A stretch of 64,000 nt of DNA from Squalus acanthias (taxonomy: Eukaryota), in contig CM059435.1 of NCBI GenBank assembly GCA_030390025.1, positions 101,122,001 through 101,186,000 on the forward strand, read 5' to 3'. Positions 4,648 to 57,123 of the stretch are shown here, in pieces. Each line of letters starts with the position of its first letter. The stretch's first letter is position 1. The translations under genes and the position numbers were made by a program. Below the pieces are notes generated by a model. The model did not search any database and was not told where the DNA came from. It was given only the letters and a program-made list of their open reading frames with translations.

Positions 4648-6970
4648 AAATCTTTATTCGATGTTTTCACAATGTCTGGGCGCTGTGTTTTAGTAAGGTT
4701 GTGCGACGATTTACAGAGAGGTATAGAACGATAAAGACTCGCAAGTGTAATGTCAGTGTGGGGTTAGCTCTACTGTACGCTATCTATAACACACTCTCTG
4801 CAACCCCAGTACAGAGTTGCAAAGTGTAATAGTTGTGATACGGTTTCATATTTTCACAGCTAATAAATTTGGATAAATACAAATATTCAAAATTCTAGCT
4901 GCAAAATGGTCTAATTCTAGGACTGGAAGCAAGTAGCCTGTGTTTCGACTATTTCCGTAAAACGTTTGCTGTTCCTAATTTAGTTTACTGCATTGCCATC
5001 CACTGTCAACAGATTGTTAACATTTCCGATGCACCAGTGGCTTGAGGAACCCGAAAGTGGAAAGGTAAAACCAGAAAGGATCACATGCCGAATATATAAA
5101 CCGGCTTTAAACAGGGTAGTTGCAGACTTTACTGAAAAGGTTTGGCGAGTGGCGGTACTATATTATTTTATAATGTGTAAGACAACGCGTCTGTTTTGTT
5201 ATATACACATTATACTGATACTCCTAGATTAAAACATAGCAGGAGTCAAGACTTAATTCCCCCACTTCATTGCTCCAGCAATATCCCTGAACCCTAGTGT
5301 CAGAATTGTACAACCATCTTACAGCAGGCTGATATTTCCATTTCAGCAACCATCTCAGGGTGCATTCACACTGCAGGTACTGCAGTTCGGGTTCCAGCAT
5401 GGCAGAGCCGACTTTAGGTTGCCTGGCTCCTGTCTGGCTGGTACTGTACCAATCTTGACCAGAAGATATAGGCGTGGGCAGAGCTCTCTCCCAACAGTTA
5501 AAAACTCAGAAATCTAACTTAGAAAGCGGGGAGGGAGGAATCTTCACTCTCCAAACATTTAAATCAAGGTTAGTTGGATTTAGGGGGTGAGGGTACTTTG
5601 TCAACCAGATTTGACACCACAATGGATTTGCAGTGTGAAGCAAAGCTGTGTGATACCAGCCTACCAGGAAGTCTTACTCGCCTTTGCTCTGGATACACTG
5701 CCAGCTTAGCATGGTTGCTGAGCCAATATCGCTTCGCACCAACTTTAAACTTGCAGTGTAAATTCACTGTAATGGGCTTCTGTCTAGTAATGTCAACTAC
5801 TGGAAATTTCAACGGCAGTTTGTGCCATCCTCTGGTTTTCACTGGGATCTGGATTGAAAGGGCAGAAATTTCTGATGCCCACACTATTGGCAAAACCTGG
5901 CATGGAGGTTTATCAGCAAACCGTGGGTGCATTGCCTGTGATTTACTGTCCATTGATATCAATAAATAGAAAAACTTGAGCAAAGCACCTGTAATTTTCT
6001 GATGTCATTATCAGAAGCTGAACTGGAGCCCAAGCCCCAGGTGAATTCTTTAGAACACGAATCTCAAAAGTGTCTTGTAAATGTCACAATATCTGTCAGT
6101 TCTTCTGTTACAGCAAGTATGTATCAGCATTACAGTCAGGGTCCCTAGAATTCTGCGCCACACCAAAGCTAATTTATAGTACAGTTATATCTGCAAACAT
6201 GCACAATTTGAGCAATTACAATTTTCTTTAATGTCTGACATTTGGTTTCGAATACCATCCCCTGATTTGATTGACTACCTGAATAGTTGATATGCATTGA
6301 CATCCAATACCACATTTCATAGAATCATAAAATCTTACAGCCCAGAAGGAGGTCATTCGGCCCATCATGTCTGTGCTGGCTCTTTGAATGAGCTATCCAA
6401 TTAGTCGCACTCCCCTACTCTTTCCCCAGAGCCCTGCAAATTTTTCCCCTTCAAAGTATTTATCCAGTTCCCTTTTGAAAGTTATTATTGAATTTGCTTT
6501 CACCACCTTTTCTGGCAGTGCATTCCAGATCATAACAACTCGCTGCATAAAAAAAATTCTCCTCATGTCACTTCTGATTCTTCTGCCAATTACCTTAAAT
6601 CTGTGTCCTCTGGTTACCGACCCTTCTCTTTATTTACCCTATCAAAACCTTCATGATTTTGAACCTCTCTATCAAATCTTCTCTTAACCTTCCCTGCTGT
6701 AAGGAGAACAACCCCAGTTTCTCTAGTCTCTATGACATAGCTGAAATCCTTCATCCCTGGTACCATTCTAGTAAATCTCCTCTGCACCCTCTCTAAGGAA
6801 TTGACATCCTTCCTAAAGTGTGGTGCCCAGAATTAGCCACAATACTCCACCTGGAGGCTAACCAGTGTTTTATAAAGGTTTATGATGCGGAGATGCCGGT
6901 GTTGGACTGGGGTGGACAAAAGTGAGAAGTCGCACAACACCAGGTTATAGTCCAACAGTTTTATTTGAAA

Positions 6971-7008
6971 TCACAAGCTTTCGGAGCGGCTGCTCCTTCG
7001 TCAGGTGA
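6971..7008 (-). ncRNA. Minimal type I hammerhead ribozyme (A1 left arm)
   Basis: Reverse strand: UCAC CUGACGA A GGAGC-agcc-GCUCC GAAA GC UU GUGA. Confidence 0.8.
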
Positions 7009-7091
7009 AGTGAAGAAATACAAATGGGCACAGCATATATAATTGAGAGGTCGCACAACACCAGGTTATAGTCCAACAGTTTTATTTGAAA

Positions 7092-7129
7092 TCACAAGCT
7101 TTCGGAACTATCGCTCCTTCCTCAGGTGA
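7092..7129 (-). ncRNA. Minimal hammerhead ribozyme (A2 left arm)
   Basis: Reverse strand: UCAC CUGAGGA A GGAGC-gaua-GUUCC GAAA GC UU GUGA. Confidence 0.78.
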
Positions 7130-7795
7130 AGTAAATTGGATACAGAATCGTCAGAGCATATATAGATGGAAAAAAAAGCATGTGTACTTTACAATTGCAG
7201 ACCAATAAATTAAATCATCCTGACTATCTGCCGAGGTGTGATAAAGTTAATTAAGTCAGCCAGGAAGGTACCACATCAAAAGACATAGCAAGATACAACT
7301 GAGACAATGAGGTGAAGTCGCAGGGGTTCTAACGTGTCAAAAGCTGCCGTCTGTATGTAAAACGAAAAGCTTTAAAAAAAAAAAATTTACTTTTTTACTG
7401 GGAAAATTTTTACTTTTTTACTGGGAATCACATCTGTGAACAAGCTAACGACGACTCGAGTCCGGATCACGTCATGTATCGTGACATAAACCCAAGATCC
7501 CGATTGAGACCGTCTTCATGAGTGCAGAACTTGGCTATCAGTTTCTGCTCGATGATTTTGCGTTTTACATACAGACGGCAGCTTTTGACACGTTAGAACC
7601 CCTGCGACTTCACCTCATTGTCTCAGTTGTATCTTGCTATGTCTTTTGATGTGGTACCTTCCTGGCTGACTTAATTAACTTTATCACACCTCGGCAGATA
7701 GTCAGGATGATTTAATTTATTGGTCTGCAATTGTAAAGTACACATGCTTTTTTTTCCATCTATATATGCTCTGACGATTCTGTATCCAATTTACT

Positions 7796-7833
7796 TCACC
7801 TGAGGAAGGAGCGATAGTTCCGAAAGCTTGTGA
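7796..7833 (+). ncRNA. Minimal hammerhead ribozyme (A2 right arm)
   Basis: tcac ctgagga a ggagc gata gttcc gaaa gc tt gtga. Confidence 0.78.
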
Positions 7834-8158
7834 TTTCAAATAAAACTGTTGGACTATAACCTGGTGTTGTGCGACCTCTCAATTTTGTCCACCCCAGTCC
7901 AACACCGGCATCTCCGCATCACAGCATATATAGACAGAGATCAATGCCTGTGCAGAGAACAATGTCAGAAGACTACAGTTAATCTTTCTGACTGCCCTTT
8001 ATCACACCTCGGCAGAGAGATTTGATTGCCGTGATTGTCTCTCTGCCGAGGTGTGATAAAGGGCAGTCAGAAAGATTAACTGTAGTCGTCTGGCATTGTT
8101 CTCTGCACAGGCATTGATCTCTGTCTATATATGCTGTGCCCATTTGTATTTCTTCACT

Positions 8159-8196
8159 TCACCTGACGAAGGAGCAGCCGCTCTGAAAGCTTGTGA
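8159..8196 (+). ncRNA. Minimal hammerhead ribozyme (A1 right arm)
   Basis: tcac ctgacga a ggagc agcc gctct gaaa gc tt gtga (G-U wobble at base of stem II). Confidence 0.75.
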
Positions 8197-9017
8197 TTTC
8201 AAATAAAACTGTTGGACTATAACCTGGTGTTGTGCGACTTCTCACTTTTATAAAGGTTTAGCGTAACTTCCTTGCTTTTGTATTCTATGCCTCTATTTAT
8301 AAAGCCAAGGATCCTGTATGCCTTTTTAACAGCCTTCTCAACTTGTCCTGCCACCTTCAAAGACTTGTGACTTCACTCCCAGGTCTCTTTTTTCCTGCAC
8401 TCCCTTTAAAATTGTACCACTTAGTCTATAGTCCCTCTACTCATCCTTCCTACCAAAATGAATCACTTTGCACTTCTCTGCATTAAATTTCATCTGTCAT
8501 GTGTCTACCCATTTCACCAGCCTGCCTATGGCCTCCTGAAGTCTGTTACTATCCTCCTCTCTGTTTACTACATATCTGAGTTTCCTGTCATCTGTAAACT
8601 TTGAAATTTGCCCTGTATACCCAAGTCCAGGTCATGAATATATATCAAAAAGAGCAGTGGTCCCAACACTGACCCCTGGGGAACACCACTGTATACTTCC
8701 CTGTAGTCTGAAAAAACAACTGCTCACCACTACTCTCTGCTTTCTGCCCCTTAGCCAATATGTATCCAAGTAGCTACTGCCCCCTTAATCCCAAGGGCTT
8801 TAATTTTGCTAACAATATAACAATCTCTCAACTAAATTACTGAATTTACACATCAGTTGCGTGTTTTTTTGTCTGATGTGGAGTGCATACACTTTTCCCG
8901 CATGGGCACATCCATATACCTAAAGCTAGAGAACTTAGGAGCAGGTTGGCGAGATCCAATGCTTACTGATCCTCAAGTGTGTGTAGAGGCCTTGCCGGAG
9001 TTTAATCAACTAAAACA

Positions 9018-9200
9018 GCACAGCTCATCAGAAGGAGACCATTTGGCCCATCGTGCCTGTGCCAGCTCTTTGAAAGAGCCATCCAATTAGTCGCACTGCC
9101 CTGCTCTTTCCCCATAACCCTGCAAATGTTTCCACTTCAAAGTATTTATACAGTTCCCTTTTGAAAGTTATTATTGAATCTGCTTTCACCACCCTTGCAA
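9018..9200 (-). mobile_element. CR1 3'-end fragment
   Basis: Near copy of 6335-6515 (gagccatccaattagtcgcac...cccttttgaaagttattattgaat). Confidence 0.8.
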
Positions 9201-12200
9201 GTGGGAAGGAAACATTTTTGCTGCTTACCCAGGCAGGTCTATTGTACCTGTTAAACTATTGATTTTTGGGGTTATCTAGTGTTAAGTGGGTAGAATTCTA
9301 GCCCCAGTGACATAACGATCCTCCAGGTCCCATCAATGAGCCAGATTGGCTGGTCAATGGTCAACAGAATCCTGAAGTGCTGTGGACCTGCTTGGCCCAG
9401 GTACTGAATTACGCAGTCTGGCACATCCCACTTCCCATCGCCTCTTGCCTTTCTCCTCGATGAGGATAATCAATATTTGGTCATTGGACAACTGAAAAAT
9501 GTAGCTTTAGAGCAGGCACAGATACTTTTCCTAAGCGTCATAGAAAGCAGCACAACTCACCACAAATGCGAGAACGCATTGCCTGTAATGTCCCAACCAT
9601 AACAAAGACCAAACACGCCGAAAGTTCATGTGAAAATAATCCTGGATATGCTTAAAACAACCTGGTTAACATGACTGGAACCAGCAAAACAGTCATAGTT
9701 GATGTAAAAATGTTGAGATAAAATCAACATTTATATTTGCTAAAACGTTAAATTAAGACCAAAACATGTATGTGGAGTTTGAATTATTAACTAAGCAACC
9801 TTCAGTTACAAAAATCATATCTAAACTATATTGTAACAGCTATGATGCAATTGCAAACATGAGGGCATTTGCAGCTCTCTGTCGCAAGAAATCTTGTCAC
9901 AACCTCGTGCAGAAATCTAGTGTAAAACAATGTAACGTTGCAGGATATAGTTGCAGTCAATAATGGTCTATTGCTCTCTTCATTTCTTATCTCACTTGAA
10001 TTAAGACAGGATTAGACTTCGATGCTGTCGTCAGAGTCAATCTTTAGTTCAAGCTTGTGTGGAAATGCAGCGCGTACAACATTCCTGCTGATTGAGAAGA
10101 GCAGCTAACCTTTGAACCTACAGCTCCAGTTCCACCCAACTTCCTGACTTCGCAGGTCAATTTCAGTAATTCATTTGAAACTCAACCAATCAGAGATCTT
10201 TGTACAGGTGGGCCTTCAGTCAGGCTGTTGCTGTAAAATCTAAGCGTTTAAAAAAAATGTAATTGCAACAATTTAAATGGGTAACGGTATGGTTGGGTTA
10301 CTGATGAAGTCGAAGAATAAGAGAAATGTTAAATCCAGATGTTTGCTTTCGGCCGAAAGTTTCCGCGAAACAAACTTTATTCCTCTCTCAGAAACAGAAA
10401 GCGGAAACCTAGCTCCCAGAGTTTGCTTTAAAAGACGCCATGCGTTAAGTTAGAAATGCTGGGATTCGAAATGAGCTGCAGTTGTAGACAGCTGTTTCAT
10501 TTACTGATTGGAAAGAAAACGTTTCCCTCATTTCAAGCTGAAAACAGAATCGGTTTTATGTTTCATCATCTTGGGTTGAATGTGTCCATTCTATTTTATG
10601 CCACTGGCTCAGTAGAGTCGAATTAGAAACCTTGACATTTAATGAAGGACACTGTTGGAGATCAGATGTAGTGTTGCTAAATACAGACAGTCGTTTACCT
10701 TCTCTTTCTATAGATCCGATTCATTAATGCTTTGCCAGTGGGGAGCGGTGTTTTATGTTAATTAATAGCGCAGTATTAGCATTGCACTTGGTTCAGTGAC
10801 TAACCAGCTTAGCCATCAGTATGTCCAGAGTTAACCTGCTATGCTTTTTGTGGAACAAACCAAAATATATATTTACCGCTATTTGGTTTAATGTGGACTC
10901 AGGATGTCATAACACTGGAATGTTACCACGTCAGAGTAATAGAACCCAGGAGAATACACGTGGAAGTACAAGTCATATCCTTTTCATTCCAGGATTTAGT
11001 TAACAAATTCAAATGTTTACAGATGGTTCTTCCGGAATTAATAATAGTAACTACACAGAATGAGCTGTTTAAATTGTTAAGCACTTGACCAAGTTTGATA
11101 AGGTACCACATAATAGACTTGTTAGCAAAATTGAAGCCCATGGGATTAAAAGGGCAACGGCAGCATGGATACGAAATTGGCTAAGGGACTGAAAGCAAAG
11201 AGTAGTGGTGAACGGTTGTTTTCCAGACTGGAGGAAAGTATATGGTGGTGTTCCCCAGGGGTCAGTGTTAGGACCACCACAGGGCATAATTTCCAAATTA
11301 GTAGTGAAACTCAAAAATGTAGTAAACAGTGAGGAGGATAGTACCAGACATCAGGAGGACACAGACACACTGGTGAAATGGGCAGGCAGGAACAGAGAGA
11401 CCTGGGGGGTTTACATACACAAATCTTTGAAGGTGGCAGGACAAGTTGATAAGGCTGTTTAAAAAATCATTTGGGATCTTTGGCTTTATAAATGGCGGCA
11501 TAGAGTACAAAAGCAAGAAAGTTATGCTAAACCTTTATACATCACTGGTTAGGCCTTAGCTGGAGTATTGTGGCCAATTCTGGGCACCACACTTTAGGTA
11601 GGATGTCATGGGCTTGGAGATGGTGCAGAGGAGATTTACTAGAATGGTACCAGGGATGAAGTACTTCAGTTACTTGGAGAGCCTGGAGAAGCTGGGATCG
11701 TTCTCCTTAGAGCAGAGAAGGTTAAGGGTAAATTTAATAGAGGGGTTCAAAATCATGAAGGGTTTTGATAAAGTAAATAAGGAGAAACTGTTTCTACTGG
11801 CAGAAGGGTCAGTAAACCAGGTCATACAGATTTAAGAACATAAGAACCTAAGAAATAGGAGCAGGAGTAGGCCATTTGGCCCTTCGAGCCTGCTCCGCCA
11901 TTCAATAAGATCATGGCTGATCTTCTATCTCAACTCCATCTTCCCACACTATCCCCATATCCCTTAATTCCCTTCATTCCCAAATATTTATTGACCTCTG
12001 TCTTGAATATACTCAACGACTGAGTATCCACAGCTCACAACCCTTTGAGTGAAGAAATTTCTCCTCATCTCAGTCCTAAATGGCTGACCCCTTATTCTGA
12101 GACTGTGACCCCGTGTTCTAGATTCCCCAGCCAGGGGAAACATTTTCTCAGCATTAACCCTGTCAAGCCCCTTAAGAATTTTATATGTTTCAATTAGATC

Positions 12201-12491
12201 ACCCCTCATTCTTCTATACTCCAGGGAATATAGGCCTAGTCTACTCAATCTCTCCTCATAGGGCAATCCCCTCATCCCAGGAACCAGTCTAGTGAACCTT
12301 TGTTGCACCCCCTTTAAGGTAAGTATGTCTTTCCTTAGGTAAGGAGACCAGAACTGTACACAGTATTCCAGGTGTGGCCTTACCAATGCCCTATATAATT
12401 GTATGATGTGGAGATGCCGGCGTTGGACTGGGGTGGACAAAAATGAGAAGTCGCACAACACCAGGTTATAGTCCAACAGATTTATTTAATT

Positions 12492-12529
12492 TTACAAGCT
12501 TTCGGAGCTATCGCTCCTTCGTCAGGTAA
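12492..12529 (-). ncRNA. Minimal hammerhead ribozyme (B left arm)
   Basis: Reverse strand: UUAC CUGACGA A GGAGC-gaua-GCUCC GAAA GC UU GUAA. Confidence 0.8.
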
Positions 12530-13249
12530 GTTAGCAATGAGAGAATCTCCCAGAATTCACAATTTAAACCCAGACAAAATCTATTCACATTATTCGCTAC
12601 AACAAAGAGCACAGCCAAGACAATGAGATGTGTCCCAGGGGGTCCAGCGTGTCAAACCACCTGCTGGCTGCATATCCTGTCAATTTGTGTTCTTGTGTTT
12701 TTTAAAAAAAAAACAAAAAAAAACAAAAAAAACACCTGGGAAGACCGGCCATGATGTCAAGTCACGTTCTGTATCGTGACATGAACCCTAACGGACACCG
12801 CGCAACAATCGCCAGGCAGGAGGATTGCCTCCCAGTCGGGGAACACTTCAGCAGCCAGGGGCATTCAGCCTCGGATCTGCGGGTAAGCGTTCTCCAAGGC
12901 GGCCTTCGAGATACACGACAGCGCAAAATCATAGAGCAGAAACTGATAGCCAAGTTCCGCACTCATGAGGATGGCCTCAATCGCGATATCGGGTTCATGT
13001 CACGATACAGAACGTGACTTGACATCATGGCCGGTCTTCCCAGGTGTTTTTTTTGTTTTTTTTTGTTTTTTTTTTAAAAAACACAAGAACACAAATTGAC
13101 AGGATATGCAGCCAGCAGGTGGTTTGACACGCTGGACCCCCTGGGACACATCTCATTGTCTTGGCTGTGCTCTTTGTTGTAGCGAATAATGTGAATAGAT
13201 TTTGTCTGGGTTTAAATTGTGAATTCTGGGAGATTCTCTTATTGCTAAC

Positions 13250-13287
13250 TTACCTGACGAAGGAGCGATAGCTCCGAAAGCTTGTAA
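13250..13287 (+). ncRNA. Minimal hammerhead ribozyme (B right arm)
   Basis: ttac ctgacga a ggagc gata gctcc gaaa gc tt gtaa. Confidence 0.8.
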
Positions 13288-15377
13288 AATTAAATAAATC
13301 TGTTGGACTATAACCTGGTGTTGTGCGACTTCTCATTTCTATATAATTGTAGTAAGACTTCTTTGCTCTTGTACTCTAATCCCTTTGTAACAAAAGCTAA
13401 CATACCATTTGCTCTCCTAATTGCTTGCTGTACCTGCATGTTAACTTTCTGTGATTCATATACAAGGACATCCAGATCCCTCTGAATGCAAACATTTCCC
13501 AATCTCTCAATATTCAAAAAATATTCTGATTTTTTGTTTTTCCAACCAAAGTGGATAACTTCACACTTCCCCACATTGTATTCCATTTGCAATGTTTTTG
13601 TCCACTCCGTCAACCTGTCTATATCTCTTTGCAGCCTCTTTGTGTCCTCCTCACAGCTTACTTTCCCACCTAACTTTGTATCATCAGCAAACTTGGATAT
13701 GTTACACTCAGTCCCTTCATCTAAATCATTAATATAGATTGTAAATAGCTGAGACCCAAGCACTGATCCTTGCGGTACCCCACTAGTTACAGCCTGCCAA
13801 CCTGAAAAAGTCCTGTTTATTCCTACTCTCTATTTTCTGGTAATTTAAGGTAATTGGCAGAAGAACCAGAGGATTACATTACATAGGATTACATAAGATA
13901 TACAGCACAGAAACAGGCCATTTGGCCCAACCAGTCCATGCCGGCGTTTAAGCTCCACTTGAGCCTCCTCCCGTCTTTCCTCATCAAAATCTATCAGCAT
14001 AATCTATTCCCTTCTCCCTCATATGCTTGTCTAGCCTCCCCTTAAATGCATCTTCAACCACTCCCTGTGGTAGCGAGTTCCACATTCTCACCACTCTTTG
14101 GGTAAAGAAGTTTCTTCTGAATTCCCTATTGGATTTCTTGGTGACTATCTTATATTGATGGCCTCTAGTTATGTTCTTCCCCACAAGTGGAAACATTCTC
14201 TCTGTATCCACTCTATCAAAACCTTTCATAATTTTAAAGACCTCTATTAGGTCACCCATCAGCCTTCTTTTTTCAAGAGAAAAGTGACCCATCCTGTTCA
14301 TCCTTTCCTGATATGTATACCCTTGCATTTCTGGTATCATCCTTGTAAATCTTCTCTGCACCCTCTCCAGTGCCTCTATATCCTTTTTATAATATGGCAA
14401 CCAGAACTGCATGCAGTACTCTAAGTGTGGTCTAACCAAGGTTCGATAGAGGTTTAGCATAACTTCCCTACTTTTCAATTTTATACCCCTAGAAATAAAC
14501 TCTAGTGCTTGGTTTGCTTTTTTTATGGCCTTGCTAACCTGTGTCACTACTTTTAGTGATTTGTGTATTTGTACTCCGAAATCCCTTTGTTCCTCTACCC
14601 CACCTAGACTCGCACCCTCCAAGTAATAAGTGACCTCCCTATTCTTCCTACCCAAATGTACTACCTCACATTTATCTGTGTTGAATTTCATTTGCCAATT
14701 ATATGCCCATTCTGCAAGTTTATTAATGTCTTCCTGTAATTTGTTGCAGTCCTCCTCAATATTGACTAACCACCCCCCCCCCCCCACCAATTTGGTGTCA
14801 TCCGCAAATTTAGAAATTGTGTTTTTGATTCCAAAGTCTAAATCATTAATGGAAATTGTGAACAACAGTGGTCCCAGCACTGATCCTTGTGGAACACCAC
14901 TACCCACCTTCTGCCACTGTGAATAGCTACCCTTTACCCCGACTCTGCGCTTTCTGTCTTGAAGCCAGCTAGCTACTTGTCCCCTGACTCCGCATTCTCT
15001 GACCTTGCTCATCAGTGTATTATGGAGTACCTTATTGAAGGCCTTTTGAAAATCTAGATAAATTACATCTACTGCATTGCCATTGTCTACTCTCTCTGTT
15101 ACCTCTTCAACAAATTCAATTAGGTTGGTCAAGCAAGACTTTCCCTTTTGAAATCCATGCTGAATATTCCTTATATTTTTGGTTTCTAGATGTTCTTCTA
15201 TTTTCTCCTTTAGTAGGGATTCCATTATTATTCCTACCACCGATGTTAAGCTGACTGGTCTATAATTCCCTGGACAAGTTCTATCCCCCTTCTTGAATAT
15301 AGGTATTACGTTAAATAAAAACAGAAAATGCTGGAGATACTCAGCAGGTCAGGCAGCATCTGTGAAGAGAGAAACAG

Positions 15378-15414
15378 AGTTAACATTTCAGGTTGATGAC
15401 CTTTCGTCAGAACT
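15378..15414 (-). ncRNA. Minimal hammerhead ribozyme (C left arm, two substitutions)
   Basis: Reverse strand: AGUU CUGACGA A AGGUC-auc-AACCU GAAA UG UU AACU. Confidence 0.65.
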
Positions 15415-16674
15415 GGAAAAAAGCAGGAAATGGAACAGATTTTTAAGCACGTGTAGGAGCTGGGAAAGGGGGGAGGGGATGAAAGAACAAAAGGGAAGGT
15501 CTGTGATAGGATAGAAGGCAGGAGAGGTTAAGAGACATTAAGAGACATTAAGAGATATTCAAGGCAAAAGGAGATGGTAATGGGACAGGTTAAGAAACAA
15601 AAGATGGCTCTAGATGAAGTGTAAATTGCGCTGGCAGAATGAAAGACAGCTGCCATGTGGGAGAGAAGAAAAGAAAACACAAACAAACAAAAAAAAAGTG
15701 TGGAAAAAAATATACATGATAGAGGCCAAGGTTATGATCTGAAATTGTTGAACTCTATGTTGAGTCCAGAAGGCTGTAAAGTGCCTAATCAAAAGATGAG
15801 GTGCTGTTCCTCGAGCTTACGTGGAACAATGTAAGAGGCCTAGGATGGTGAAGTCTGAGTGGGAGTGGAGCGGAGAATTAAAGTGACAGGCGACCGGAAG
15901 CTCGGGGTCCCCCTTACGGACTGAACAGAGGTGTTTCGCAAAGCGGTCACCCAATCTGCGTTTGGTCTCCCCAATGTAGAGGAGACCGCATCGTGAGCAG
16001 CAAATACAGTATACTAAATTGCAAGAAGTACAAGTAAATCGCTGTTTCACCTGGAAGGGGTGTTTGGGGCCCTGGACAGTGGGAAGGGGGGAGGTATAAG
16101 GGCATGTGTTGCATCTCCTGCGCTTGTACGGGAAGGTGCCGGGTGAAGGGGAAGGGTTGTTGGGGGTGATAGAGGAGTGGATTTACTCCGAGCTTCCAGT
16201 CGCCTGTCACTTTAATTCTCCGCTCCACTCCCACTTGGACCTCACCATCCTTGGCCTCTTACATTGTTCCACTGAAGCTCAACGTAAGCTCGAGGAACAG
16301 CACCTCATCTTTCGATTAGGCACTTTACAGCCTTTTGGACTCAACATAGAGTTCAAAAATTTCAGATCATAACCTCGGCCCCTATCATGTATATATTTAT
16401 TTTACACTTTTTTTTTGTTTGTGTTTTCTTTTCTTCATTCCCACATGGCAGCTGTCTTTCATTCTGCCAGCGCAATTTACACTTCATCTAGAGCCATCTT
16501 TTGTTTCTTAACCATCTCCTTTTGCCTTGAATATCTCTTAATGTCTCTTAATGTCTCTTAACCTCTCCTGCCTTCTATCCTATCACAGACCTTCCCTTTT
16601 GTTCTTTCATCCCCTCCCCCCTTTCCCAGCTCCTACATGTGCTTAAAAATCTGTTCCATTTCCTGCTTTTTTCC

Positions 16675-16711
16675 AGTTCTGATGAAAGGTCATCGGCCTG
16701 AAACGTTAACT
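16675..16711 (+). ncRNA. Minimal hammerhead ribozyme (C right arm)
   Basis: agtt ctgatga a aggtc atc ggcct gaaa cg tt aact. Confidence 0.78.
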
Positions 16712-19700
16712 CTGTTTCTCTCTTCACAGATGCTGCCTGACCTGCTGAGTATCGCCAGCATTTTCTGTTTTTATTTCAGATTTCCAGCATCTGCTGTATT
16801 TTCTTTTTGTATAGGTATTACATTAGCTATCCACCAGTCTTCTGGCACTACACCTTTTTTGAACAAATTATTAAATATGTGTAGTAATGCCTCTGCTATC
16901 TCCTCCCTAGATTCTTTTAAAATGCGTGGATGCAATCCATTCGGACCAAGGGTTTTATCCTCTTTGAGTTTGATTAGTTTATTTAATATATCCCCTCTTT
17001 TTATTTTAAATGCACTTATCTCATTACTAATCTGATCATCCAATGTCATGTCCACCTGTTTTATCTCCCTGGTAAATACTGACGCAAAATAATTATTTAA
17101 TATTTCTGCCATCTCTCTATCATTACCTGTGGTATTATCCTGTCTATCCCTTAATGGCCCTATTCCCATCCCAACCTTCCTTTTTTTATTGATGTGCCTG
17201 TAAAATATTTTACTATTTTGTTTTATGTTCCTTGATAATTTAATTTCATAGTTCCTCTTTGCCTTCCTAATTGTTTTTTTGACTTCTCTCCTAATCTCTT
17301 CATATTCTCCCTTATCATGCTCTCCCCTGCTGTCCATGTGCTTAATGTATGCCTCTTTCATTGCCCTCAATTGTTCCCTTATGGCTTTATTCATCCATGG
17401 AGTGTCATTAGTGTTTAGTTTGTTCTTTCCTTTTAGTGGAATATATTGTTCCTGCACTCTGTTGAACACCATTTTAAATGTTTCCCATTGCTGTTCTACA
17501 TCGTTGTTTGCCAATATTGTTGCCCATTTTATTTTCCCAAGTTCTATTCTCAGCCCCTCAAAATCAGCTTTTCTCCAATCTATTAACCTAGTTTTTGTCA
17601 TACTTATGTCTTTCTCAATTATCATCTTAAAACATATTATATTATGGTCACTATTGCCTAGATATTCCCCTACTTTTACTTCTCTTATCTGCTCTGGTTC
17701 ATTCCCCATTACTAGATCCAATAGTAAATCCTCCTTTGTTGGGCTTTTTACATATTGGGTTAGAAAGGAGTCATGTACACATTGTAGGAACTACATTCCC
17801 TTATCCCCTTTACCTACCTCTTCTGTCCAATTAATATCGGGGTAGTTGAAATCACCCATGATTATTATTCTATGTTTTTTTACTCGTTTCCCTAATTTGT
17901 CTGCATATTTCATCCTCCACCTCCCTTCCACTATTAGGTGGTCTGTAGACTACACCTATTAATGTGATTGATCCTTTATTATCATTTATCTCTATCCATA
18001 TGGATTCTATTTCTGTCTTGCTGATAGCTGCATCACTTTTTCTACTGCCATTATGTTATCCCTAATAAGTACAGCTACTCCACCTCCCCTTTTTCCCTCT
18101 CTATCTTTTCTAAATATGTTATACCCTGCAATGTTTAATTCCCAGTCCTGATTTTTCTGTAGCCATGATTCAGTAATCCCTACTATGTCTGGTTCCTCAC
18201 AACGCATGATTGCCTGCAGCTCCCCTGTTTTATTATGGACACTGTGTGCATTGCTGTACAGATAGTTTAACTAATTTTTAATAAGATTTCCTCTCACTTT
18301 ACATTTAACCATCTTTTTATACTCCTGTTCTATAACTCTATTTATTTCCTGCCTATCAATATCCTCCCTTACTTTATTCTTTCCTATGCTCTCTTTTCCT
18401 GTTTTGTTTATATTTAGGCTGGTTACATTTCTTGTAGATCCCTCCCCCCATCTTACTAGTTTAAAGCCTTTGCCACCTCCCTATTTACCCTTTCCGCTAG
18501 GACACAGGTCCCATCCCGGTTCAGGTGGAGCCTGTCCCATCGGTACAGCTCCTTCCTGTCCCAGAACTGGTGCCAGTGTCCCATGAAAAGTAACCCCGCT
18601 TTCCCACACCAGCCCTTTAGCCACGTGTTAATTCTCCTGATCTGTCTGAGAGATGAGGAGAAATTTTTTGACTCAGCGAGTTGTTATGATCTGGAATACA
18701 CTGCATGAAAGGATGGTGGAAGCCGATTCAATAGCAACTTTCAAAAGGGAATAGGATAAATACTTGAAAAGGAAACATTTGCAGTGCTATGGGGAAAGAG
18801 TAGGGGAGTGCGACTAATTGGATAGCTCTTTCAAAGAGCCGGCACAGTCATGGTGGGCCGAATGGCCTCCTTCTGGGCTGTAAGATTCTTTGATTTTTAT
18901 GACCAGGATGAACTACATTCATTGTAGAAGCACGGGCATTATTCAGTATGTCCGAATGTAATTCGGGTGTACTTACATGAATAATTACAAAACTCGCAGT
19001 TAGAATAACAGCAATACCAATGGTAATGGATTAATCGCGTGAGTTTTATACAATTTGTTGCGGGTATTGATGTAAATATGATTGCAGCACATATTTATCT
19101 CCTCGTGATGCTTCCGATTGGGAGGTAAATCCAGCGTTAAGCCAGCAGTCAGATACTTCAATGCTCCTCAATTTGTTTACAGACCTTGTTCGGGAGACTC
19201 CCAAACTTTTCCTACAAGGGGCATGTGAACTTGTTTTCGTGCTTAATAGAGAACATATTTTGCAATATTTCACGATATTATCACAACAATGATTACTAGG
19301 TCGATTTTTAAATATTAAGTATAGAGATCTTCCTGTAAACACTTAAAAATTGCAAAGTGAAGGATATCTTAACTATTATCTATCCTTTCGAGAAAGGTCA
19401 GGCAAAACGTCAGGATGAGATGGCGTTATCTTCTGAAATCATTTAAAATTGTGTTCCCCCTATTTTCATTAGCAATAAATAGTAATTTCAGGTTACTGCA
19501 GTTTGGGGGAAATAAATGTATTGCAATTTAAATTGCTTTTGATAAACTGGTCGTTCCTATAGCAATTGTAATTTGAAAATGGCAGTCAGAACGGGAATGA
19601 CCAAATCATGCCCAATTCATCAAAAGTTCCCTTTCATAAATCATGAATTTAGTAACTTGCAATGTAATATTCCGGTGGCAGCGGCAGGGCCGAAGATCCA

Positions 19701-31202: not shown

Positions 31203-33533
31203 CATAGAAACATAGAAACATAGAAGATAGGAGCAGGAGTAGGCCATTCGGCCCCTCTAGCCTGCTCCACCATTCAATGCGATCATGGCTGATCATCCAA
31301 ATTCAGAACCCTGTCCCTGCTTTCTCCCCATATCCCTTGATCCCTTTAGCCTTAAGAAATATATCCAACTCCTTCTTGAATATATTTAATGAATTGGCCT
31401 CTACTGCCTTCTGAGGTAGAGAATTCCACAGGTTCACCAATCTCTGGGTGAAGAAATTCCTCCTCATTTCTGTCCTAAATGGCTTACCCCTTATCCTTAG
31501 ACTGTGACCCCTGGTTCTGGACTCCCCAACCATCGGGAACATCTTCCTGCATCTAGTCTGTCCAGTCCTGTCAGAATTTTATAAGTTTCAATGAGATCCC
31601 CTCTCATTCTTATAAACTCCAGCGAGTATAAGCCCAATCGACCCAATCTCTCCTCATACGTCATTCCTGCCATCCCAGGTATCAGCCTGGTGAATCTTCG
31701 CTGAACTCCTTCCATGGCAAGAACCTCCTTCCTCAGATAAGGTGACCAAAACTGCACACAATACTCAAGATGTGGTCTCACCAAGGCCCTGTACAACTGC
31801 AGCAAGACATCCTTGTTCCTGTACTCAAACCCTTTCACTACGAAGGCCAACATACCATTTGCCTTCTTAACCATCTGCTGCACCTGCATGCTTACCTTCA
31901 GCGACTGGTGCACATAGACACCCAGGTCTCGTTGCACTTCCCCTTCTCCCAATCTATTGCCATTCAGATAATAATCTGCCTTCCTGTTTTCGACACCAAA
32001 GTGGATAACCTCGCATTTATCCACGTTGTATTGCATCTGCCATGCTTCTGCCCAATCACCCAACCTGTCCAAATCATCCTGGAGTTTCTCAGCATCCTCC
32101 TCACAGCACACACGCCCACCCAGCTTTGTGTCGTCTGCAAACTTGGAGATATCACATCTAGTTCCCTTGTCTAGATCATTAATATATATTGTGAATAGCT
32201 GGGGTCCAAGGACTGATCCCTGCGGTACCCCACTAGTCACTGCCTGCCACTCGGAAAAAGACCCGTTTATTCCAACTCTTTGCTTTCTGTCTGCCAACCA
32301 GTTCTCTATCCAAGTCAATACCTTGCCCCCAATCCCATGTGCCTTAACTTTACACGCTAATCTCTTATGCGGGACCTTATCGAAAGCCTTTTGAAAGTCC
32401 AAATACATCACATCCACTGGTTCTCCCTTATCTATTTTACCAGTTACATCCTCAAAAAATTCCAGTAGATTAGTCAAGAACGATTTACCTTTTGTAAATC
32501 CATGTTGACTTTGTCCGATCCTGTCACTGTTTTCCAAGTGCTCTGCTATTACATTTTTTACAATGGACTCTAGCATTTTCCCCACTACCGATGTCAGTCT
32601 GTAATTCCCCGTTTTCTCTCTACCACCTTTTTTGAATAGTGGGGTAACATTAGCTACCCTCCAATCCATGGGTATTGTTCTATATATGCTTTGACGATTC
32701 TGTATCTCCTCACTTCACCCGACGAAGGAGTTGTAACTCCGAAAGCTTGTGATTTAAAATAAAACTGTTGGACTATAACCTGGTGTTGTGCGACCTCTCA
32801 ATTTTGTCCACCCCAGTCCAACACCGGCATCTCCGCATATTGTTCCAGATTCCATTGAATGTTGGTGAATGATCAGCAATGCATCTACTATTTCTAGGGC
32901 CACTTCCTTAAGTACCCTAGGATGTAGATTATCAGGCCCTGGGGATTTATCGGCCTTCAATCCCATCAATTTCCCTAACACCATTACCCTACAAATACTG
33001 ATTTCTTTCAGTTCCTCCCTTTAATCAGACCCTATGTTCCCCGACATCTCTGGGAGGTTATTTGTGTCCTCCTTTGTGAAGACAGAACCAAAATATGTAT
33101 TTAATTGGTCTGCCATTTCTTTGTTCCCCATTATAAGTTCCCCTGATTCTGACTGCAAGGGACCTACGCTTGACTTCACCAATCTTTTTCTCTTCACATA
33201 TCTATAAAAGCTTTTACAGTCAGTTTTTATGTTCCCTGCAAGCTTCCTCTCATATTCTATTTTCCCCTTCTTAATTAATCCCTTTGTCCTCCTTTGTTGA
33301 ATCCTAAACTGCTCCCAATCCTCAGGTTTACTGCTTTTTCTGGCCAATTTATATGTCCTCTCCTTGGATCTTATGCTATCCCTAATTTCCCTTGTTAGCC
33401 ACGGTTGAGTCACCTTTTTTGTTTTATTCTTATGCCAAACTGGGATGAACAAATTCTGTAGTTCATCCATGCGGTCTTTGAATGTTTGCCATTGCCTATC
33501 CACCGTCAACCCTTTGAGTGACATTCCCCAATC
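31203..33533 (-). mobile_element. 5'-truncated CR1 LINE ORF2 with solo PLE arm inserted
   Basis: 390-aa RT ORF 31497-32669 plus ORFs 33021-33524 and 31303-31542; (catagaaa)n tail at left. Confidence 0.95.
32681..32837 (+). mobile_element. Solo PLE family-1 3' arm (element F) with mutated hammerhead (32715-32752)
   Basis: Homologous to A2 right arm including tail; TSD tattgttc at 32673-32680 and 32838-32845; core reads CCGACGA, stem II ggagt-tgta-actcc. Confidence 0.88.
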
Positions 33534-35900: not shown

Positions 35901-36582
35901 GTTGACCTGAAATAAAAATAGAACGTACACAAAGCCAGCCAATCAACATCTCAAAAAACCAAAACAGATTAATATTTTGTGCATAATTCTTCATCAATTT
36001 TACATTTTCTTTGTCTTTTTTGGTGTACCATTTTGATCAAGCACCAAAGCCCCAATTTTAATTTGAAGCGGGAATCGGGTGGGTTGGGGCTCAGGCAGGT
36101 GGTAAACAGTCCTGACCTTGTCAGTGTGAGGCTCTGGAGGTTTTAACTCATGAACCTCATCTGCATGCTACCAGTCAGTTTCCTGCCTGAAACCAACGGG
36201 AAGCTTGCAGCTGGCCTGCTGGCAGAGCACAATGTCAAATGACAAGAGGCAGATGATGGGGACCAAAGAAACGGTCCCTGGCACTCAGGTAAGTCACTTT
36301 AAGGTGGTTTCGGGAGGGTCTCGCGATCGCTGAGGGAACCCCAAAGCAGGGGAGGCCTAAATGCTTCTTACGGAGCCTGGAGGAGCATAAGTGCTCCTCC
36401 TAGCCCCACAAGGAATGTAAAAAAGAAAGTAAAAAGACTTGCCTTTTTGGCCCTCTTCTTGCCTGGATCCTTTTCCTACTAATACAAAAGCAAAATACTG
36501 CGGATGCTGGAAATCTGAAATAAAAACAGAAGATGCTGGAAATACTCAGCAGGTCAGGCAGCATCTGTGGAGAGAGAAACAG

Positions 36583-36619
36583 AGTTAACGTTTCAGGTCG
36601 ATGACCCTTTGTCAGAACT
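36583..36619 (-). ncRNA. Hammerhead ribozyme with core mutation (D left arm)
   Basis: Reverse strand: AGUU CUGACAA A GGGUC-auc-GACCU GAAA CG UU AACU; G8>A, probably inactive. Confidence 0.6.
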
Positions 36620-37392
36620 GGAAAAAGCTGGAGATGGAACAGGTTTTTAAGCAAGTGCTGGGTCAGGGAAAGGGGGGAGGGGAGGAAAGAACAAAAGGGA
36701 AGGTCTGTGATAGGATGGAAGGCAGGAGAGATTAAGAGACATTAAGAGAGATTAAAGATGGTACTGGGACAAGTTAAGAAACAAAAGATGGCTCTAGATG
36801 AAGTGTAAATGGCACTGGCAGAATGAAAGACAGCTGCCATGTGGGAGAGACCATTGGGGAGACCAAACACAGATTGGGTGACCGTTTTGCAGAACACCTT
36901 CGTTCAGTCCGTAAGGGTGACCCCGAGCTTCCGGTCGCCTGTCACTTTAATTCTCCACTCCATTCCCACTCAGACCTCACCATCCTCGGCCTCTTACACT
37001 GTTCCAATGAAGCTCAATGTAAGCTAGAGGAACAGCACCTCATCTTTCGATTAGGCACTTTACAGCCTTCTGGACTCAACATAGAGTTCAACAATTTCAG
37101 ACTATAACCTCTGCCCCTTTCCTTTTTGTTCATTTATTGTTTTTCTGTCTCTCACATGGCAGCTGTCTTTCATTCTGCCAGTGCCATTTACACTTCATCT
37201 AGAGCCATCTTTTGTTTCTTAACTTGTCCCATTACCATCTCCTTTTGCCTTGCACCATCTCTTAATCTCTCTTAATGTCTCTTAATCTCTCCTGCCTTCC
37301 ATCCTATCACAGATAGGATGTTCTTTCCTCCCCTCCCCCCTTTCCCTGCCCCTGCACTTGCTTAAAAACCTGTTCCATCTCCAGCTTTTTCC

Positions 37393-37429
37393 AGTTCTGA
37401 CGAAGGGTCAGCGACCTGAAACGTTAACT
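37393..37429 (+). ncRNA. Minimal hammerhead ribozyme (D right arm)
   Basis: agtt ctgacga a gggtc agc gacct gaaa cg tt aact. Confidence 0.8.
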
Positions 37430-40400
37430 CTGTTTCTCTCTCCACAGATGTTGCCTGACCTGCTGAGTATTTCCAGCATCTTCTGTTTTTATTCCTTTTC
37501 CTACTAGATGGACTTGGCAGGAAAGGCACAACCGCTTCTCCACTCAGGCCTATAGTTAAAATTGCAGTCGCACCCCGATTATATCATCAGAGACAATCTC
37601 CATATTTGAAGAAGGAACCTACGGTTTCCAGCAGGTTTCCTTTTCACCTACTCAAAAGAGCAGGATAAAACTGTAGCATGTGGTACATCGGCGAGTGAGT
37701 CCCACGGGTAATTTTAACTGCTTGCTTGACCAGGTTAAAATCGCTCTCTAAATACATGTATTTAACTGAGAAAAAAATTCAAGGGTGAAAAAAATGGAAA
37801 AGCTAAAAAATTAAATAAAAATCTCATCGTCATTCCGTATGAATTGTTCAACTGGTTGGTGTCATGGATTGAATAGATAATACAAGCAGATGCATGGCTG
37901 TGATTCAACCCATGACAGCATCAGTGGAGCAGTCCTTTAAGAACGGGAAAGCATAGCATAGTGAGAACTGTAAATGTTTATTTTAAATTGCTTTTTAAAT
38001 TCAGTTTTCAGTGAGCAATGCTACTACTTACCAGAATTTTAAAAATGAACTGTTTACAGTATAAGTAGAGATTTACTTATAATAGTTACCATATTTTCTT
38101 TGAAACTTTATATGCAATGGTCTTTTTATATCTACAGTTTGTTCCAATGAGTTATTTTGAGATTGAGTGCTGCTTTGCAATGTATATGGTTGTGGGAGGA
38201 GTACATGTTTCACCAGAGTCCACTTTATAACTGCAAGATTATCATCAGTGTTAGATATCATCTGACGCTGCATAGCTAAAAAAGCAAAAATAGCAACATA
38301 ATATGTTAAAATACACATAAGTAATAATCGGACTCCTTAGCATCTTAAACAAGAAAGAGAAGGAACGATAGAAGATAAGACACATGAGAAAAACCAAGTT
38401 TCCTGCTGAAACATGTCCTTCATTTTTATCCTAAACTAACAGATTTGTTTACAATAAGGTGACACTGATAGTTTATGCTAATCAAGAGTACAGCTCCAAA
38501 GTCAACTGCAGGGCTGGAATCTATGAGACTGTACGGATGGAATTTTAGTCTACGACAGTCACTAAAGTAAATCTGACATTTTCAAGGCACAAATCTTCCA
38601 TAACAAAACAGACAGCATCTTGGCACCTGATGCGAGAGTTGTACCAATGGCAGAGATTATTTGTAGGAAAGTGAAAGAAGTTAAACTAACTCTGTAAGGT
38701 TTTCATATTCTAGAAAAGCTGTTTTATTTGTCCTCTTTCTTCCTCAAGCCTGCAATAACTGGTTCTCCTAATTACCCTTCCTCCACATATGGAAAAATAT
38801 CTGGCCTTTGCTCTGTATTTCTCCATGTCACAGATGAGATTAGTAACGCCAAGTGTGGCAGAAACGTATATACTGTAATGTAGCACCACCCGTAAACCTT
38901 CATTTCAAGTTCATCAATGGTTGGTCAAATAAGCCATGGAGGTTACTTTAATAAAGTAGCTGAGGAAAAAAGCTCTTGTAATGTTGCATCGTACAGTACT
39001 TGTAAGAGCTTATAGGTGAAGGTTCACTGATAAAAATAAATGAACTATAATTAATTCTGAGCAGTCAACAGAAAAATACTACTCTACCTTTTCTAGGTCA
39101 AATAGTAAATCAATTTTCATTATCGTTGTGAAAGTCACCAAAAATTAATTTCAAGCCTGAGCCTAATTACAAAAAAGGCATTTAACCTTAGCCAAATTCT
39201 TCACCCTAAAAAGATACAATAAACTCAGCCCAAAATGATCAAAATGAGTCAATTAAATTCTGGAATTCTAGAATATTAGAATAGGAAGCTGCATATTACA
39301 GTTGAATGGACATTCCCAATTTCAGAGGTTGATCTCCTGCTCTCTTGTGGTGGAGGGCCTCTTGAAATTGTCAGAAACCAGCACTTTCCATGAGTACAGT
39401 TGTCGCTTGATCATAAAAAGAAACAAAAGCTATTCAGATAATATTCAGCTACAGGATTACCAGGGAATCTGTTTTTTGCTTTTGAATCATAAAAAGGAAT
39501 TCTGATGAAGAATTTAATTAATTTCATCAATATATATTTTCCCATACACAGCAGAGAATATAAATGCTTCCTCTTAACAGATGGTAAACTCGTCTTTTCT
39601 TTATTAGTGAAGATAATTAGATCAGTTGTCCATTGACATTATCCCACTGGCAAAGGCATTCATCAACGATTAAAGCCAGTTGGTAAGGAGCCAAGCCACA
39701 GAAATGTATTACAGGTCATGATTTTAGGCCTCCTGATTTTAGATTTTAACCCAAAGATACCTGATAATTACCACCTAAAAGATGAATTCCAAAATAAGAT
39801 TTTAACTCGATAAACTCAAAAATGTTATTTCCAAGCCGAATTGTCATAAAATAAAAAGACTAGTCTATTTTTGATACTGACCAATAATCAAAATTGCAAT
39901 CTCATTTGGGTGATTGAACAGTAAACAGGGCATAAACTATTCCTGACATTTTGTTGTTTAAATCAATACAATGCAAAATGGAGGTGGCGGGTCATTAAGC
40001 TGATTCATGTGACTTTTTTTAAGAGAAATCAGGGCACCAATAAATTCATCATTTGCCTTGTTTTGTAGTCAGACATCTGTAAACATCTAAGTGATAATTT
40101 CTCGACTTTGCATTACCAGCAGGGAGCTTTACCCTTTGGTAGTGCATATTGGAAATTTGGCAAATATGCCTGGAACCTTAATATCCAAATATCATAAAAA
40201 AATAAAAACATTTACTTACAATGCAACATCAGTGTCCATAACAGCATAGGCGTCACAGGTCTTGGAACTGCACTTGAGTGTCACATTTAATTCTATCAGC
40301 GCATGCATTAGACAGCCACTGCTCTAGCTGGCACAATGATGGTATTCAGCCTGACAATGTAAAATGAGTTTGCATCGCCTTAAGGAGGTGGATTTGTTCA

Positions 40401-54955: not shown

Positions 54956-56003
54956 TCTTAAGAGGTCACCCACACTCAGGTATAGATAGTGGTCCAGGTA
55001 AATTAGGAATTGGGGACAGGAATACTCAAAGGTCATTCTTTAATCTTTTTTAGAAAAGGAACCAAGTTATGAACAAGTGTATAATTAAACCTCCATCTAA
55101 AAGCTGGGAAGTTTAGAGAAATGGTAAAGAGGACCATTTTTAAACCATTCTAATTTTCTGTTTATTCCTACATAATTCTGAATGGGTCAGTATTTACTTC
55201 TCTTAAATCTCCCTATTCATTGATATTTTTTCTAACATAAATTATTATGTTATAGAATTGTAGACAATTCAGTTCCTCGTGAGCAATCTGTTTTCTAGAT
55301 TTTGTGCTTGGGTAAACGTTCACAATGCATGCTGGGCAATGCAGATTTTCCACAGCAATTCTAATTTCACTTTCAACTATTTTGACCAGCCTCGAGCAAT
55401 TATCTAACCCTCCAGCCTGCTACCTCCATACAGAACCATTGCCAATTACCTCTCTATTCATATACGCCCCTCCAACCTGCGGTCTGCTCATTTCAGGACT
55501 TCAAAGATTGGAATGATGGCCCACTCCGAAACGCATGGAGAGGGGGAAGGATTTTTCAAATTGCTACAGCATGAGGCTGCAAATTCCTGCCCTTTGTAGG
55601 ATTACTTCACTGTCTGGGTGAGAGAGTATGTTGACAGTCATCACGATCAGGGATAGAAGCAGGAAATTTAGAATTGTACACACTTCTTCCAAAATTCGCC
55701 ACATCCCTCCCCTGAGGCCCAAACATTGCTCCCCCAGAAAATTTATACATTAAAAATGGTGCATTTCACAATTGATAGACCTTCAATCTAAAAAAAAATG
55801 GAAAAATAAATAACATACTAACCAGACCATCAATTCTCCAAAAGCTATCTGAAAAATCACCATTCCTCTGTTCAGTTGTAGTCCCCTTCCCTTCACAGAG
55901 AGCCTCTTTCACAAAGGAATTCTTCAATTCTGATCTCTGTCCTAATTTACAAAAATGAGAAGTCGCACAACACCAGGTTATAGTCCAACAGATTTATTTA
56001 ATT

Positions 56004-56042
56004 TTACAAGCTTTCGAAGCAGTTCGCTCCTTCGTCAGGTAA
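56004..56042 (-). ncRNA. Minimal hammerhead ribozyme (E left arm)
   Basis: Reverse strand: UUAC CUGACGA A GGAGC-gaacu-GCUUC GAAA GC UU GUAA. Confidence 0.78.
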
Positions 56043-56807
56043 GTTAGCAATGAGAGAATCTCCCAGAATTCACAATTTAAACCCAGACAAAATCTATTCA
56101 CATTATTCCCTGCAACAAAGAGCACAGTCAAGACAATGAGTTGTGTCCCAGGGGGTCCAACGTGTCAAACCACCTGCTGGCTGCATATCCTGTCAATTTG
56201 TGTTCTTGTGTTAGCCTTTTAAAAAAAAAAACACCTGGGAAGACCGGCCATGATGTCAAGTCACGTTCTGTATCGTGACATGAACCCGATATCGCGATTG
56301 AGGCCATCCTCATGAGTGCGGAACTTGGCTATCAGTTTCTGCTCTATGATTTTGCGCTGTCGTGTATCTCGAAGGCCGCCTTGGAGAACGCTTACCCGCA
56401 GATCCGACTGGGAACACTTCAGCAGCCAGGGGCATTCAGCCTCGGATCTGCGGGTAAGCGTTCTCCAAGGCGGCCTTCGAGATACACGACAGCGCAAAAT
56501 CATAGAGCAGAAACTGATAGCCAAGTTCCGCACTCATGAGGATGGCCTCAATCGCGATATCGGGTTCATGTCACGATACAGAACGTGACTTGACATCATG
56601 GCCGGTCTTCCCAGGTGTTTTTTTTTTTAAAAAGGCTAACACAAGAACACAAATTGACAGGATATGCAGCCAGCAGGTGGTTTGACACGTTGGACCCCCT
56701 GGGACACAACTCATTGTCTTGACTGTGCTCTTTGTTGCAGGGAATAATGTGAATAGATTTTGTCTGGGTTTAAATTGTGAATTCTGGGAGATTCTCTCAT
56801 TGCTAAC

Positions 56808-56846
56808 TTACCTGATGAAGGAGCGAACTGCTTCGAAAGCTTGTAA
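56808..56846 (+). ncRNA. Minimal hammerhead ribozyme (E right arm)
   Basis: ttac ctgatga a ggagc gaact gcttc gaaa gc tt gtaa. Confidence 0.78.
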
Positions 56847-57123
56847 AATTAAATAAATCTGTTGGACTATAACCTGGTGTTGTGCGACTTCTCATTTTTG
56901 TCCACCCCAGTCCAACGCCGGCATCTCCACATCATGACCTCTAATTTACAAAGGCACTGTCTCCCTCTGTTCCCAAGATCAATGATATACTTTTCCCCTC
57001 TACCTCTTCTCCCAGCTCAAAGAAGCAATGTTTGCCATCTAACCACTTCTCCAATTCATAGAGACATTCTCCCTCTCTGATGGTCTACTTATTGACAATC
57101 TCAGCTGAAGCTTGTAACTAGCA

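Follow-up and report, generated by a model that had tools for sequence, protein, structure and literature searches.

We analyzed a 64,000-nucleotide stretch of Squalus acanthias DNA (the window; assembly GCA_030390025.1, contig CM059435.1, positions 101,122,001 to 101,186,000 of the forward strand) in which two palindromic insertions of a Penelope-like element (PLE), A and B, interrupt the second open reading frame (ORF2) of two copies of a long interspersed nuclear element (LINE) that we take to be CR1. A sequence-only reading of this DNA had noticed that both insertions sit at the same base of the host ORF2 and had proposed that the PLE prefers a target inside another LINE. Our results show that A and B arose separately as insertions of a high-copy PLE, and they make it quite probable that the codon the two share is used recurrently through a general mirror-symmetric sequence preference and not through recognition of CR1.

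Both PLE elements and both CR1 hosts lie on the minus strand. The upstream ORF2 part of the host of A, recognized by translation and tblastn, ends in SKEVT (8261-8816), and its downstream part runs from below 6882 to about 6640. Target-site duplications (TSDs) of 15 nt flank the insertion at its 3′ tail (6868-6882), where the apparent length is compatible with 12 nt plus microhomology, and at its inverted end (8246-8260). The insertion is a compound of two elements. The outer one, A1, consists of a 3′ pseudo-long terminal repeat (pLTR) tail (6883-7028), with a hammerhead-like motif at 6973-7005 that was identified by pattern and has no Rfam hammerhead match, and of a remainder (7933-8245) that, near 8030, turns back on itself to form an inverted terminal repeat and carries another hammerhead-like motif at 8162-8194. 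Nested in A1 is A2 (7029-7932, plus strand), a second PLE palindrome (7042-7919) with its own TSD (7029-7041 and 7920-7932) and arms of 99.7% identity (7041-7368 and 7557-7884); A2 thus lies, in the opposite direction, within the 3′ region of a PLE of its own family. The palindrome of B (12404-13338) has arms at 12441-12788 and 12991-13338, also 99.7% identical, with the end of the endonuclease-coding region between and within them and hammerhead-like motifs at 12494-12526 and 13253-13285. It is bordered by 13-nt TSDs at the 3′ tail (12391-12403, an apparent length) and the inverted end (13339-13351), and by a host whose upstream ORF2 part, read by translation, ends in SKEVL (13352-13880) and whose downstream ORF2 end and tail occupy 11837-12390 (left boundary approximate).

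Reading across the junctions confirmed how they had been spelled: in both A and B, the PLE tail (...catca) meets the same TA of the L-x-L-Y codons. The T that follows catca may belong to the start codon of the element itself (catc-ATG). This leaves two adjacent bases as possible cut positions, and both are used at other loci. The two hosts are 65-68% identical over their aligned parts, and A is nearest to one full-length PLE (93-96%) and B to another (96-97%). A and B are therefore independent events, and the earlier statement that they are not a duplicated composite holds. The target is empty in the CR1 copies near 11530, 14460, 31800 and 54860, as had been reported, and also in a copy near 27330, giving five empty copies in total.

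The 17-base tail of this PLE runs into the ORF start codon (catc-ATG) and occurs as 41,105 exact copies in the 3.71-Gb genome. Because long ORFs remain open at locus L162 (7317-9995, minus strand; 892 amino acids) and locus L161 (2148-4766, plus strand; 872 amino acids), the family is young and possibly active. The L162 ORF, from the element to which B is 96-97% identical, has a reverse transcriptase (RT) that matches Pfam RVT_1 and, as read by eye, a C-terminal GIY-YIG-like core (VVY..C..C..YIG plus H..H); a local Pfam search of this ORF did not detect a GIY-YIG domain. The Atlas clusters nearest the PLE ORF (score 0.98) carry RVT_1, and one of them has GIY-YIG on 52% of its members. Upstream of the core in L162 lies a CX4CxxC linker (CHGNLCKTC), and a CX2-5CxxC motif between RT and endonuclease marks Neptune and Nematis PLEs (PMC8557442). 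The pLTR is present in direct and inverted copies and the tail is optional, a hallmark of PLEs. With RT and a GIY-YIG-like domain bearing CCHH residues in one ORF, the family is by all appearances an endonuclease-bearing PLE. The hammerhead core CUGANGA...GAAA occurs eight times in the window as a pattern without a match to the Rfam hammerhead model, and the terminal repeat folds with no extra stability relative to shuffled sequences (z = -0.65), which supports a ribozyme neither way. An Rfam scan of 6800-13500 returned only hairpin microRNA models, below gathering scores, an effect of the palindrome. The CR1 hosts have an ORF2 with RT (RVT_1 on a natural copy) and a conserved C-terminal LVRP.LEY..QFW, by translation and tblastn.

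To see whether insertions recur at the L-x-L-Y codon, we used a conserved anchor in CR1 that lies 17 nt downstream of it and is present in 220,530 genome copies; cut positions are given as offsets, in nucleotides upstream of this anchor. The PLE tail lies 0-70 nt upstream of the anchor in 390 matches genome-wide. Among the 100 matches listed, sorted by eye, 34 fit the cut seen in the window (offsets 13-19), 19 fall at 20-21, 37 lie about 60 nt upstream and 10 elsewhere; scaled from these 100 rows, about 130 same-direction insertions occupy the codon among the 220,530 anchor-bearing copies. TSDs could be resolved in 21 of 30 same-direction loci that were fetched (seven at offsets 16-17, six at 21, five at 56-62 and three at others), and the inserts of the seven at 16-17 are 119-941 nt long. 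In the opposite orientation, 228 matches lie at most 39 nt from the same anchor (3 of the 100 listed are tail variants), and 17 of 30 loci were resolved, 11 at offsets 16-17 and five at 21. These 228 matches rule out a fixed orientation relative to CR1. Per copy, the codon is occupied about 100 times as often as an average base, with the two positions pooled. It is a real but modest hot spot, one of several, and is used in both orientations. In two genome-spread samples, sorted by eye, 0 of 100 and 2 of 100 listed junctions fell at the codon (pooled, 0 of 200 are same-direction and 2 of 200 opposite-direction junctions); the first sample used a GATC anchor, which may enrich one CR1 site, and the second was drawn with another anchor. 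Two same-direction hits among seven copies in one window should occur in about 0.4 windows per genome, so this window caught a real hot spot by good luck.

Insertions outside CR1 ORF2 reveal the target preference of the family. A logo of 54 such sites, built without forcing symmetry, is dyad-symmetric: CnCTGnC, then a 12-nt TSD that is mostly AT-rich, then GnCAGnG. The letter frequencies at paired positions are 0.63 for C(-1) and 0.63 for G(+13), 0.51 for C(-5) and 0.50 for G(+17), 0.44 for C(-7) and 0.52 for G(+19), and 0.48 for T(-4) and 0.52 for A(+16). The first 70 junctions came from a CR1-rich chromosome end with about 2.5 times the mean anchor density and were used for the logo, not for genome shares. 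Junctions without a recognizable inverted end and TSD were dropped, which kept 62 of 96, 44 of 71 and, in a fresh sample, 40 of 70. Among 102 distinct sites with an inverted end, the TSD is 12 nt in 49, 13 nt in 25, 14 nt in 12 and shorter than 12 nt in 14, a spread that a 12-nt stagger with chance extension would give. When a matrix of the left flank is run on the reverse complements of right flanks, they outscore all 190 shifted controls (31 sites). The eight distal letters match 36 of 80 times in the fresh sample, versus 18.8 expected (10 non-ORF2 sites with exact 12-nt TSDs). Moreover, occupancy outside ORF2 rises about tenfold with every two motif matches, both in training (2e-6, 1.5e-5, 1.4e-4 and 2e-3) and in the fresh sample (2.7e-6, 2.3e-5, 1.6e-4 and 3.2e-3). 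Within the window, the motif is matched at 9 of 10 letters by a further PLE palindrome, D (55942-56952, plus strand), which has a 12-nt TSD (55942-55953 and 56941-56952) and lies in DNA without a CR1 ORF2 hit; A2 matches at 7 of 10, B at 4-5 and A at 1-4. In the literature searched, which was mostly open-access papers with few Repbase reports and, for PMC11167929, its main text, neither a symmetric PLE target motif nor a CR1-targeting PLE turned up.

The sequence-only reading had suggested comparing any CR1 peak with a null built from the logo of non-CR1 insertions. Applied to 82 empty CR1 copies, our matrix predicts the peak position. Its maxima are at offsets 16 (21-fold), 17 (8), 21 (4), 52 (5.5) and 60 (29), and the observed cut clusters at 16-17, 21 and 56-62 match all of these except 52; between the peaks, 22 junctions are predicted and about 20 were seen. 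The same matrix locates a hot spot outside CR1. Across the 156,500 units of a 67-bp tandem minisatellite without a CR1 hit (L281-L300; unit in L293:1460-2426), 389 PLE junctions fall at about one base, exactly at the single predicted peak, at 450-fold seen versus 74-fold predicted; one such site is in the training set, and some hits are tandem copies. This minisatellite is hit more often per copy than the CR1 codon. Of the original proposal, the peak at the codon and the independence of its insertions stand. A preferred target inside CR1 is not supported, given 2 of 200 sampled junctions at the codon, a peak that the non-ORF2 logo predicts and a minisatellite that is hotter per copy. The simpler alternative offered alongside it, a sequence preference that the codon happens to fit, is the better of the two, though not in the form given: a TA-N6-TATA motif is rejected, as the T often comes from the start codon of the element itself, and AT-richness is all that the spacer shows.

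A hotter CR1 site lies at the codons for SLATGEVPEDW (the GEVP site), where one CR1 family fits the dyad motif at 10 of 10 letters (chance at a random position, 4.4e-7). We counted 239 antisense junctions among 11,800 anchors, or at least 2%, which is a floor because some antisense anchors fall in the PLE's own ORF, and 171 sense junctions among 29,009 anchors (0.6%). The insertions are independent, since insert lengths range from 33 to more than 1,800 nt; examples are L008, L012, L039, L113, L115, L129 and L186, and L251 and L256 are empty copies. The homologous base of other CR1 families is used by the full-length PLE in L161 and, in the window, by C, a non-palindromic PLE fragment (32673-32845, plus strand; 8-nt apparent TSD) that lies antisense in a third CR1 at SGTIPMDW codons. 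The GEVP site accounts for about 1% of junctions (410 versus 41,105 tails), and its occupancy is near the trend extrapolated from non-CR1 DNA.

Several results weigh against a general preference as the explanation. Matrix counts are 3-12-fold low overall: about 133 junctions were seen versus 38 predicted at offsets 13-19 (bootstrap 15-91), about 74 versus 6 (2-16) at 20-22, and about 144 versus 43 (13-135) at 57-66, the observed counts being extrapolated from 100 rows that were classified by eye. In the 100 listed rows, a junction at the predicted peak of 52 occurred only about once, and site A fits the motif weakly (matrix 4.5-fold). At the GEVP site, occupancy is 3,660-fold versus 37-fold by the full matrix, which meets a GC-rich spacer there, and 753-fold by a flank-only matrix. 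The logo has just 54 sites, some within repeats and one in the minisatellite, and it excludes about 40% of junctions, in which no palindromic duplication was recovered. Finally, 22 of 101 sampled TSDs lie in CR1 ORF2 (16 of 61 and 6 of 40), whose share of a random background of 380 kb is 14%, or 15% with matrix weighting. CR1 may thus still be over-used by up to a few-fold. However, the minisatellite is also under-predicted, so the shortfall is not peculiar to CR1.

Could the specificity of the endonuclease nevertheless have been shaped by CR1 ORF2 as a safe place to land, so that sites elsewhere are relaxed off-targets? In that case the site to which it is tuned would be SLATGEVPEDW and not the L-x-L-Y codon. 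We consider this unlikely, although it survives better than the other alternatives. In a fuller version, which we regard as equally doubtful, the PLE GIY-YIG domain would be a relaxed, homing-endonuclease-like enzyme whose optimal dyad evolved on the GEVPEDW codons (10/10, 2% occupied), with nicks 12 nt apart, two-end priming and the other hot spots, those of the window among them, as off-targets. The ten consensus letters come from non-ORF2 sites and yet fit this site of one CR1 family perfectly, and by independent insertions it is the hottest site measured; one of its half-sites falls in conserved V-P-x codons, other CR1 families are used at the homologous base, and CR1 ORF2 is about 1.5-fold over-represented in our samples. 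However, the pattern count places about 1% of junctions at the site (3 of 100 and 7 of 100 in samples, which far anchors may inflate), the full dyad is present in one CR1 family only, and occupancy is close to what non-CR1 DNA predicts. The site also emerged from a search for hot spots, so a best-fitting repeat of some kind was inevitable, and the CR1 ORF2 share in the fresh sample (15%) equals background.

It is very improbable that the hot spots are a few PLE-in-CR1 composites copied by CR1 retrotransposition, segmental duplication or satellite expansion. Some junctions do recur letter-identical (L050 and L051 are duplicates) and some minisatellite hits lie 1-2 kb apart, but the seven resolved same-direction inserts at offsets 16-17 differ in length and in their inverted joins, both orientations occur, and the hosts belong to different CR1 families. 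Independence is likewise evident at the GEVP site and in the minisatellite (inserts of 126 to more than 1,500 nt), and copying had already been refuted for A and B; with diverged hosts and differing inserts at the codon and the GEVP site, we reject a duplicated composite. Least credible of all is a specific preference for the L-x-L-Y codon, the inference first drawn from the window: its many insertions in both directions, 3-4 times the matrix prediction and in several CR1 families, are outweighed by its rarity in the samples, by offsets 21 and about 60 being equally hot, by the use of both orientations, by hotter repeats elsewhere and by a spread of junctions whose peak position is predicted from non-CR1 sites, which largely refutes it.

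Target-specific retrotransposons that live in other transposons, such as Tx1L in Tx1D, place most copies at one site in one orientation. The Squalus PLE resembles Tx1L in that it repeatedly enters a different mobile element at one base. Unlike R2- and Tx1-type elements, it places 2 of 200 junctions at the codon and about 1% at its hottest site, and it uses both orientations at the codon and at the GEVP site.

How might a general mirror-symmetric preference produce palindromic insertions? Two GIY-YIG domains, as a dimer or as one domain acting twice, would make nicks in opposite strands at a spacing of 12 nt, each immediately 5′ to a G, to leave 3′ overhangs. Each overhang would then anneal to terminal-repeat RNA by 1-5 bases and prime reverse transcription, one near the ORF start codon and one at a U-run about 40 nt upstream, and the two cDNAs would join into a palindrome. 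Microhomology is present at both ends. At the tail end, the first three TSD bases match the continuation of the PLE RNA at 2.05 positions versus 1.02 in permutations, and an excess of matches persists at positions 3-6 in the 14 sites whose first base is mismatched. At the inverted end, 3.2 of the first five TSD bases match the RNA versus 1.9 in permutations. These tests used 93/98 sites at each end, and 0 of 2000 permutations reached the observed value. Motif-fitting positions in CR1 and satellites would become recurrent hot spots because these repeats offer 10^4-10^5 near-identical copies. The TSD lengths, the dyad flanks, the cuts shared by both orientations and the microhomology are seen in the sequence, and from them we infer nicks, a dimer and double priming. 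Against this model, PMC11167929 saw no homology between cut DNA and the RNA start site in its element.

In vitro, that element, the Poseidon PLE of Anolis carolinensis (PAc), cleaves both strands and extends them, and it is predicted to dimerize (PMC11167929), steps that we propose for the Squalus family from its insertions. The two would also share an internal start of reverse transcription that gives the tail, an AT-rich cut region and a pLTR hammerhead, which in Squalus is a motif only (PMC11167929). PAc prefers 5′-ATT-3′, starts 111-118 nt into the ORF and does so without RNA homology to the cut DNA (PMC11167929), whereas the start codon is where the Squalus joins concentrate, microhomology accompanies them, and the target information lies mainly in the G/C flanks outside the TSD. 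The Squalus family resembles Neptune and Nematis in its single ORF with RT plus a GIY-YIG-like domain at the C terminus, CCHH-type residues and the CX2-5CxxC linker, as well as in its inverted 5′-truncated copy and optional tail (PMC8557442). Neptune and Naiad have been linked to microsatellite targets (PMC8557442); in contrast, the Squalus family has a dyad, non-microsatellite motif and clean 12-nt TSDs. Penelope elements of Adineta vaga likewise have inverted terminal repeats framing their inserts and insert into LINEs and other Penelope copies, with TSDs of 8-10 bp and no target consensus given in the available text (PMC3846280). Their palindromes were explained by self-priming on an antisense template (PMC3846280), whereas both outer ends in Squalus are microhomologous, which fits priming from two DNA ends. 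Lastly, I-TevI and I-BmoI share the GIY-YIG fold family, a sequence-tolerant motif and a nick just 5′ of G, which in Squalus is deduced from the TSDs, but they nick 2 nt apart in one asymmetric site (PMC12774661) and the Squalus PLE would nick 12 nt apart in a dyad.

Further recurrent PLE cuts were seen in CR1, in ORF2 and downstream of it (L036, L237 and L318; L122 and L192; L001, L003, L005 and L020; L052, L068, L109, L112, L193 and L307). In L286 and L287, an inverted duplicated arrangement has the PLE joined to a CR1 dyad half-site at one end and to the minisatellite at the other. The PLE ORF has a 12-base word in common with one half-site of the hottest CR1 site (L161, 1106 and 3391 region; L070), probably by chance. 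Elsewhere in the window, another repeat family is present in direct and inverted copies that are 84-92% alike (15313-15976, 16185-16812 and 36482-37493), one of which splits a long CR1. Two random background stretches contain long ORFs resembling an LTR (long terminal repeat) retroelement (L172) and a stop-free frame of 876 residues (L171).

The recurrence noticed in the window is real and its cause at the L-x-L-Y codon is ordinary, and the symmetric target and the priming signature are well defined. How PLEs cut their targets and how their inverted structures originate are open questions in PMC8557442 and PMC11167929. This family offers a defined substrate for them: its site is symmetric, its stagger is fixed at 12 nt, two regions of RNA start are mapped and a natural 892-amino-acid ORF is open. 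The model of double nicking and two-ended priming is therefore directly testable. For the recurrent insertion of one mobile element into another, sequence preference and host copy number alone can suffice.

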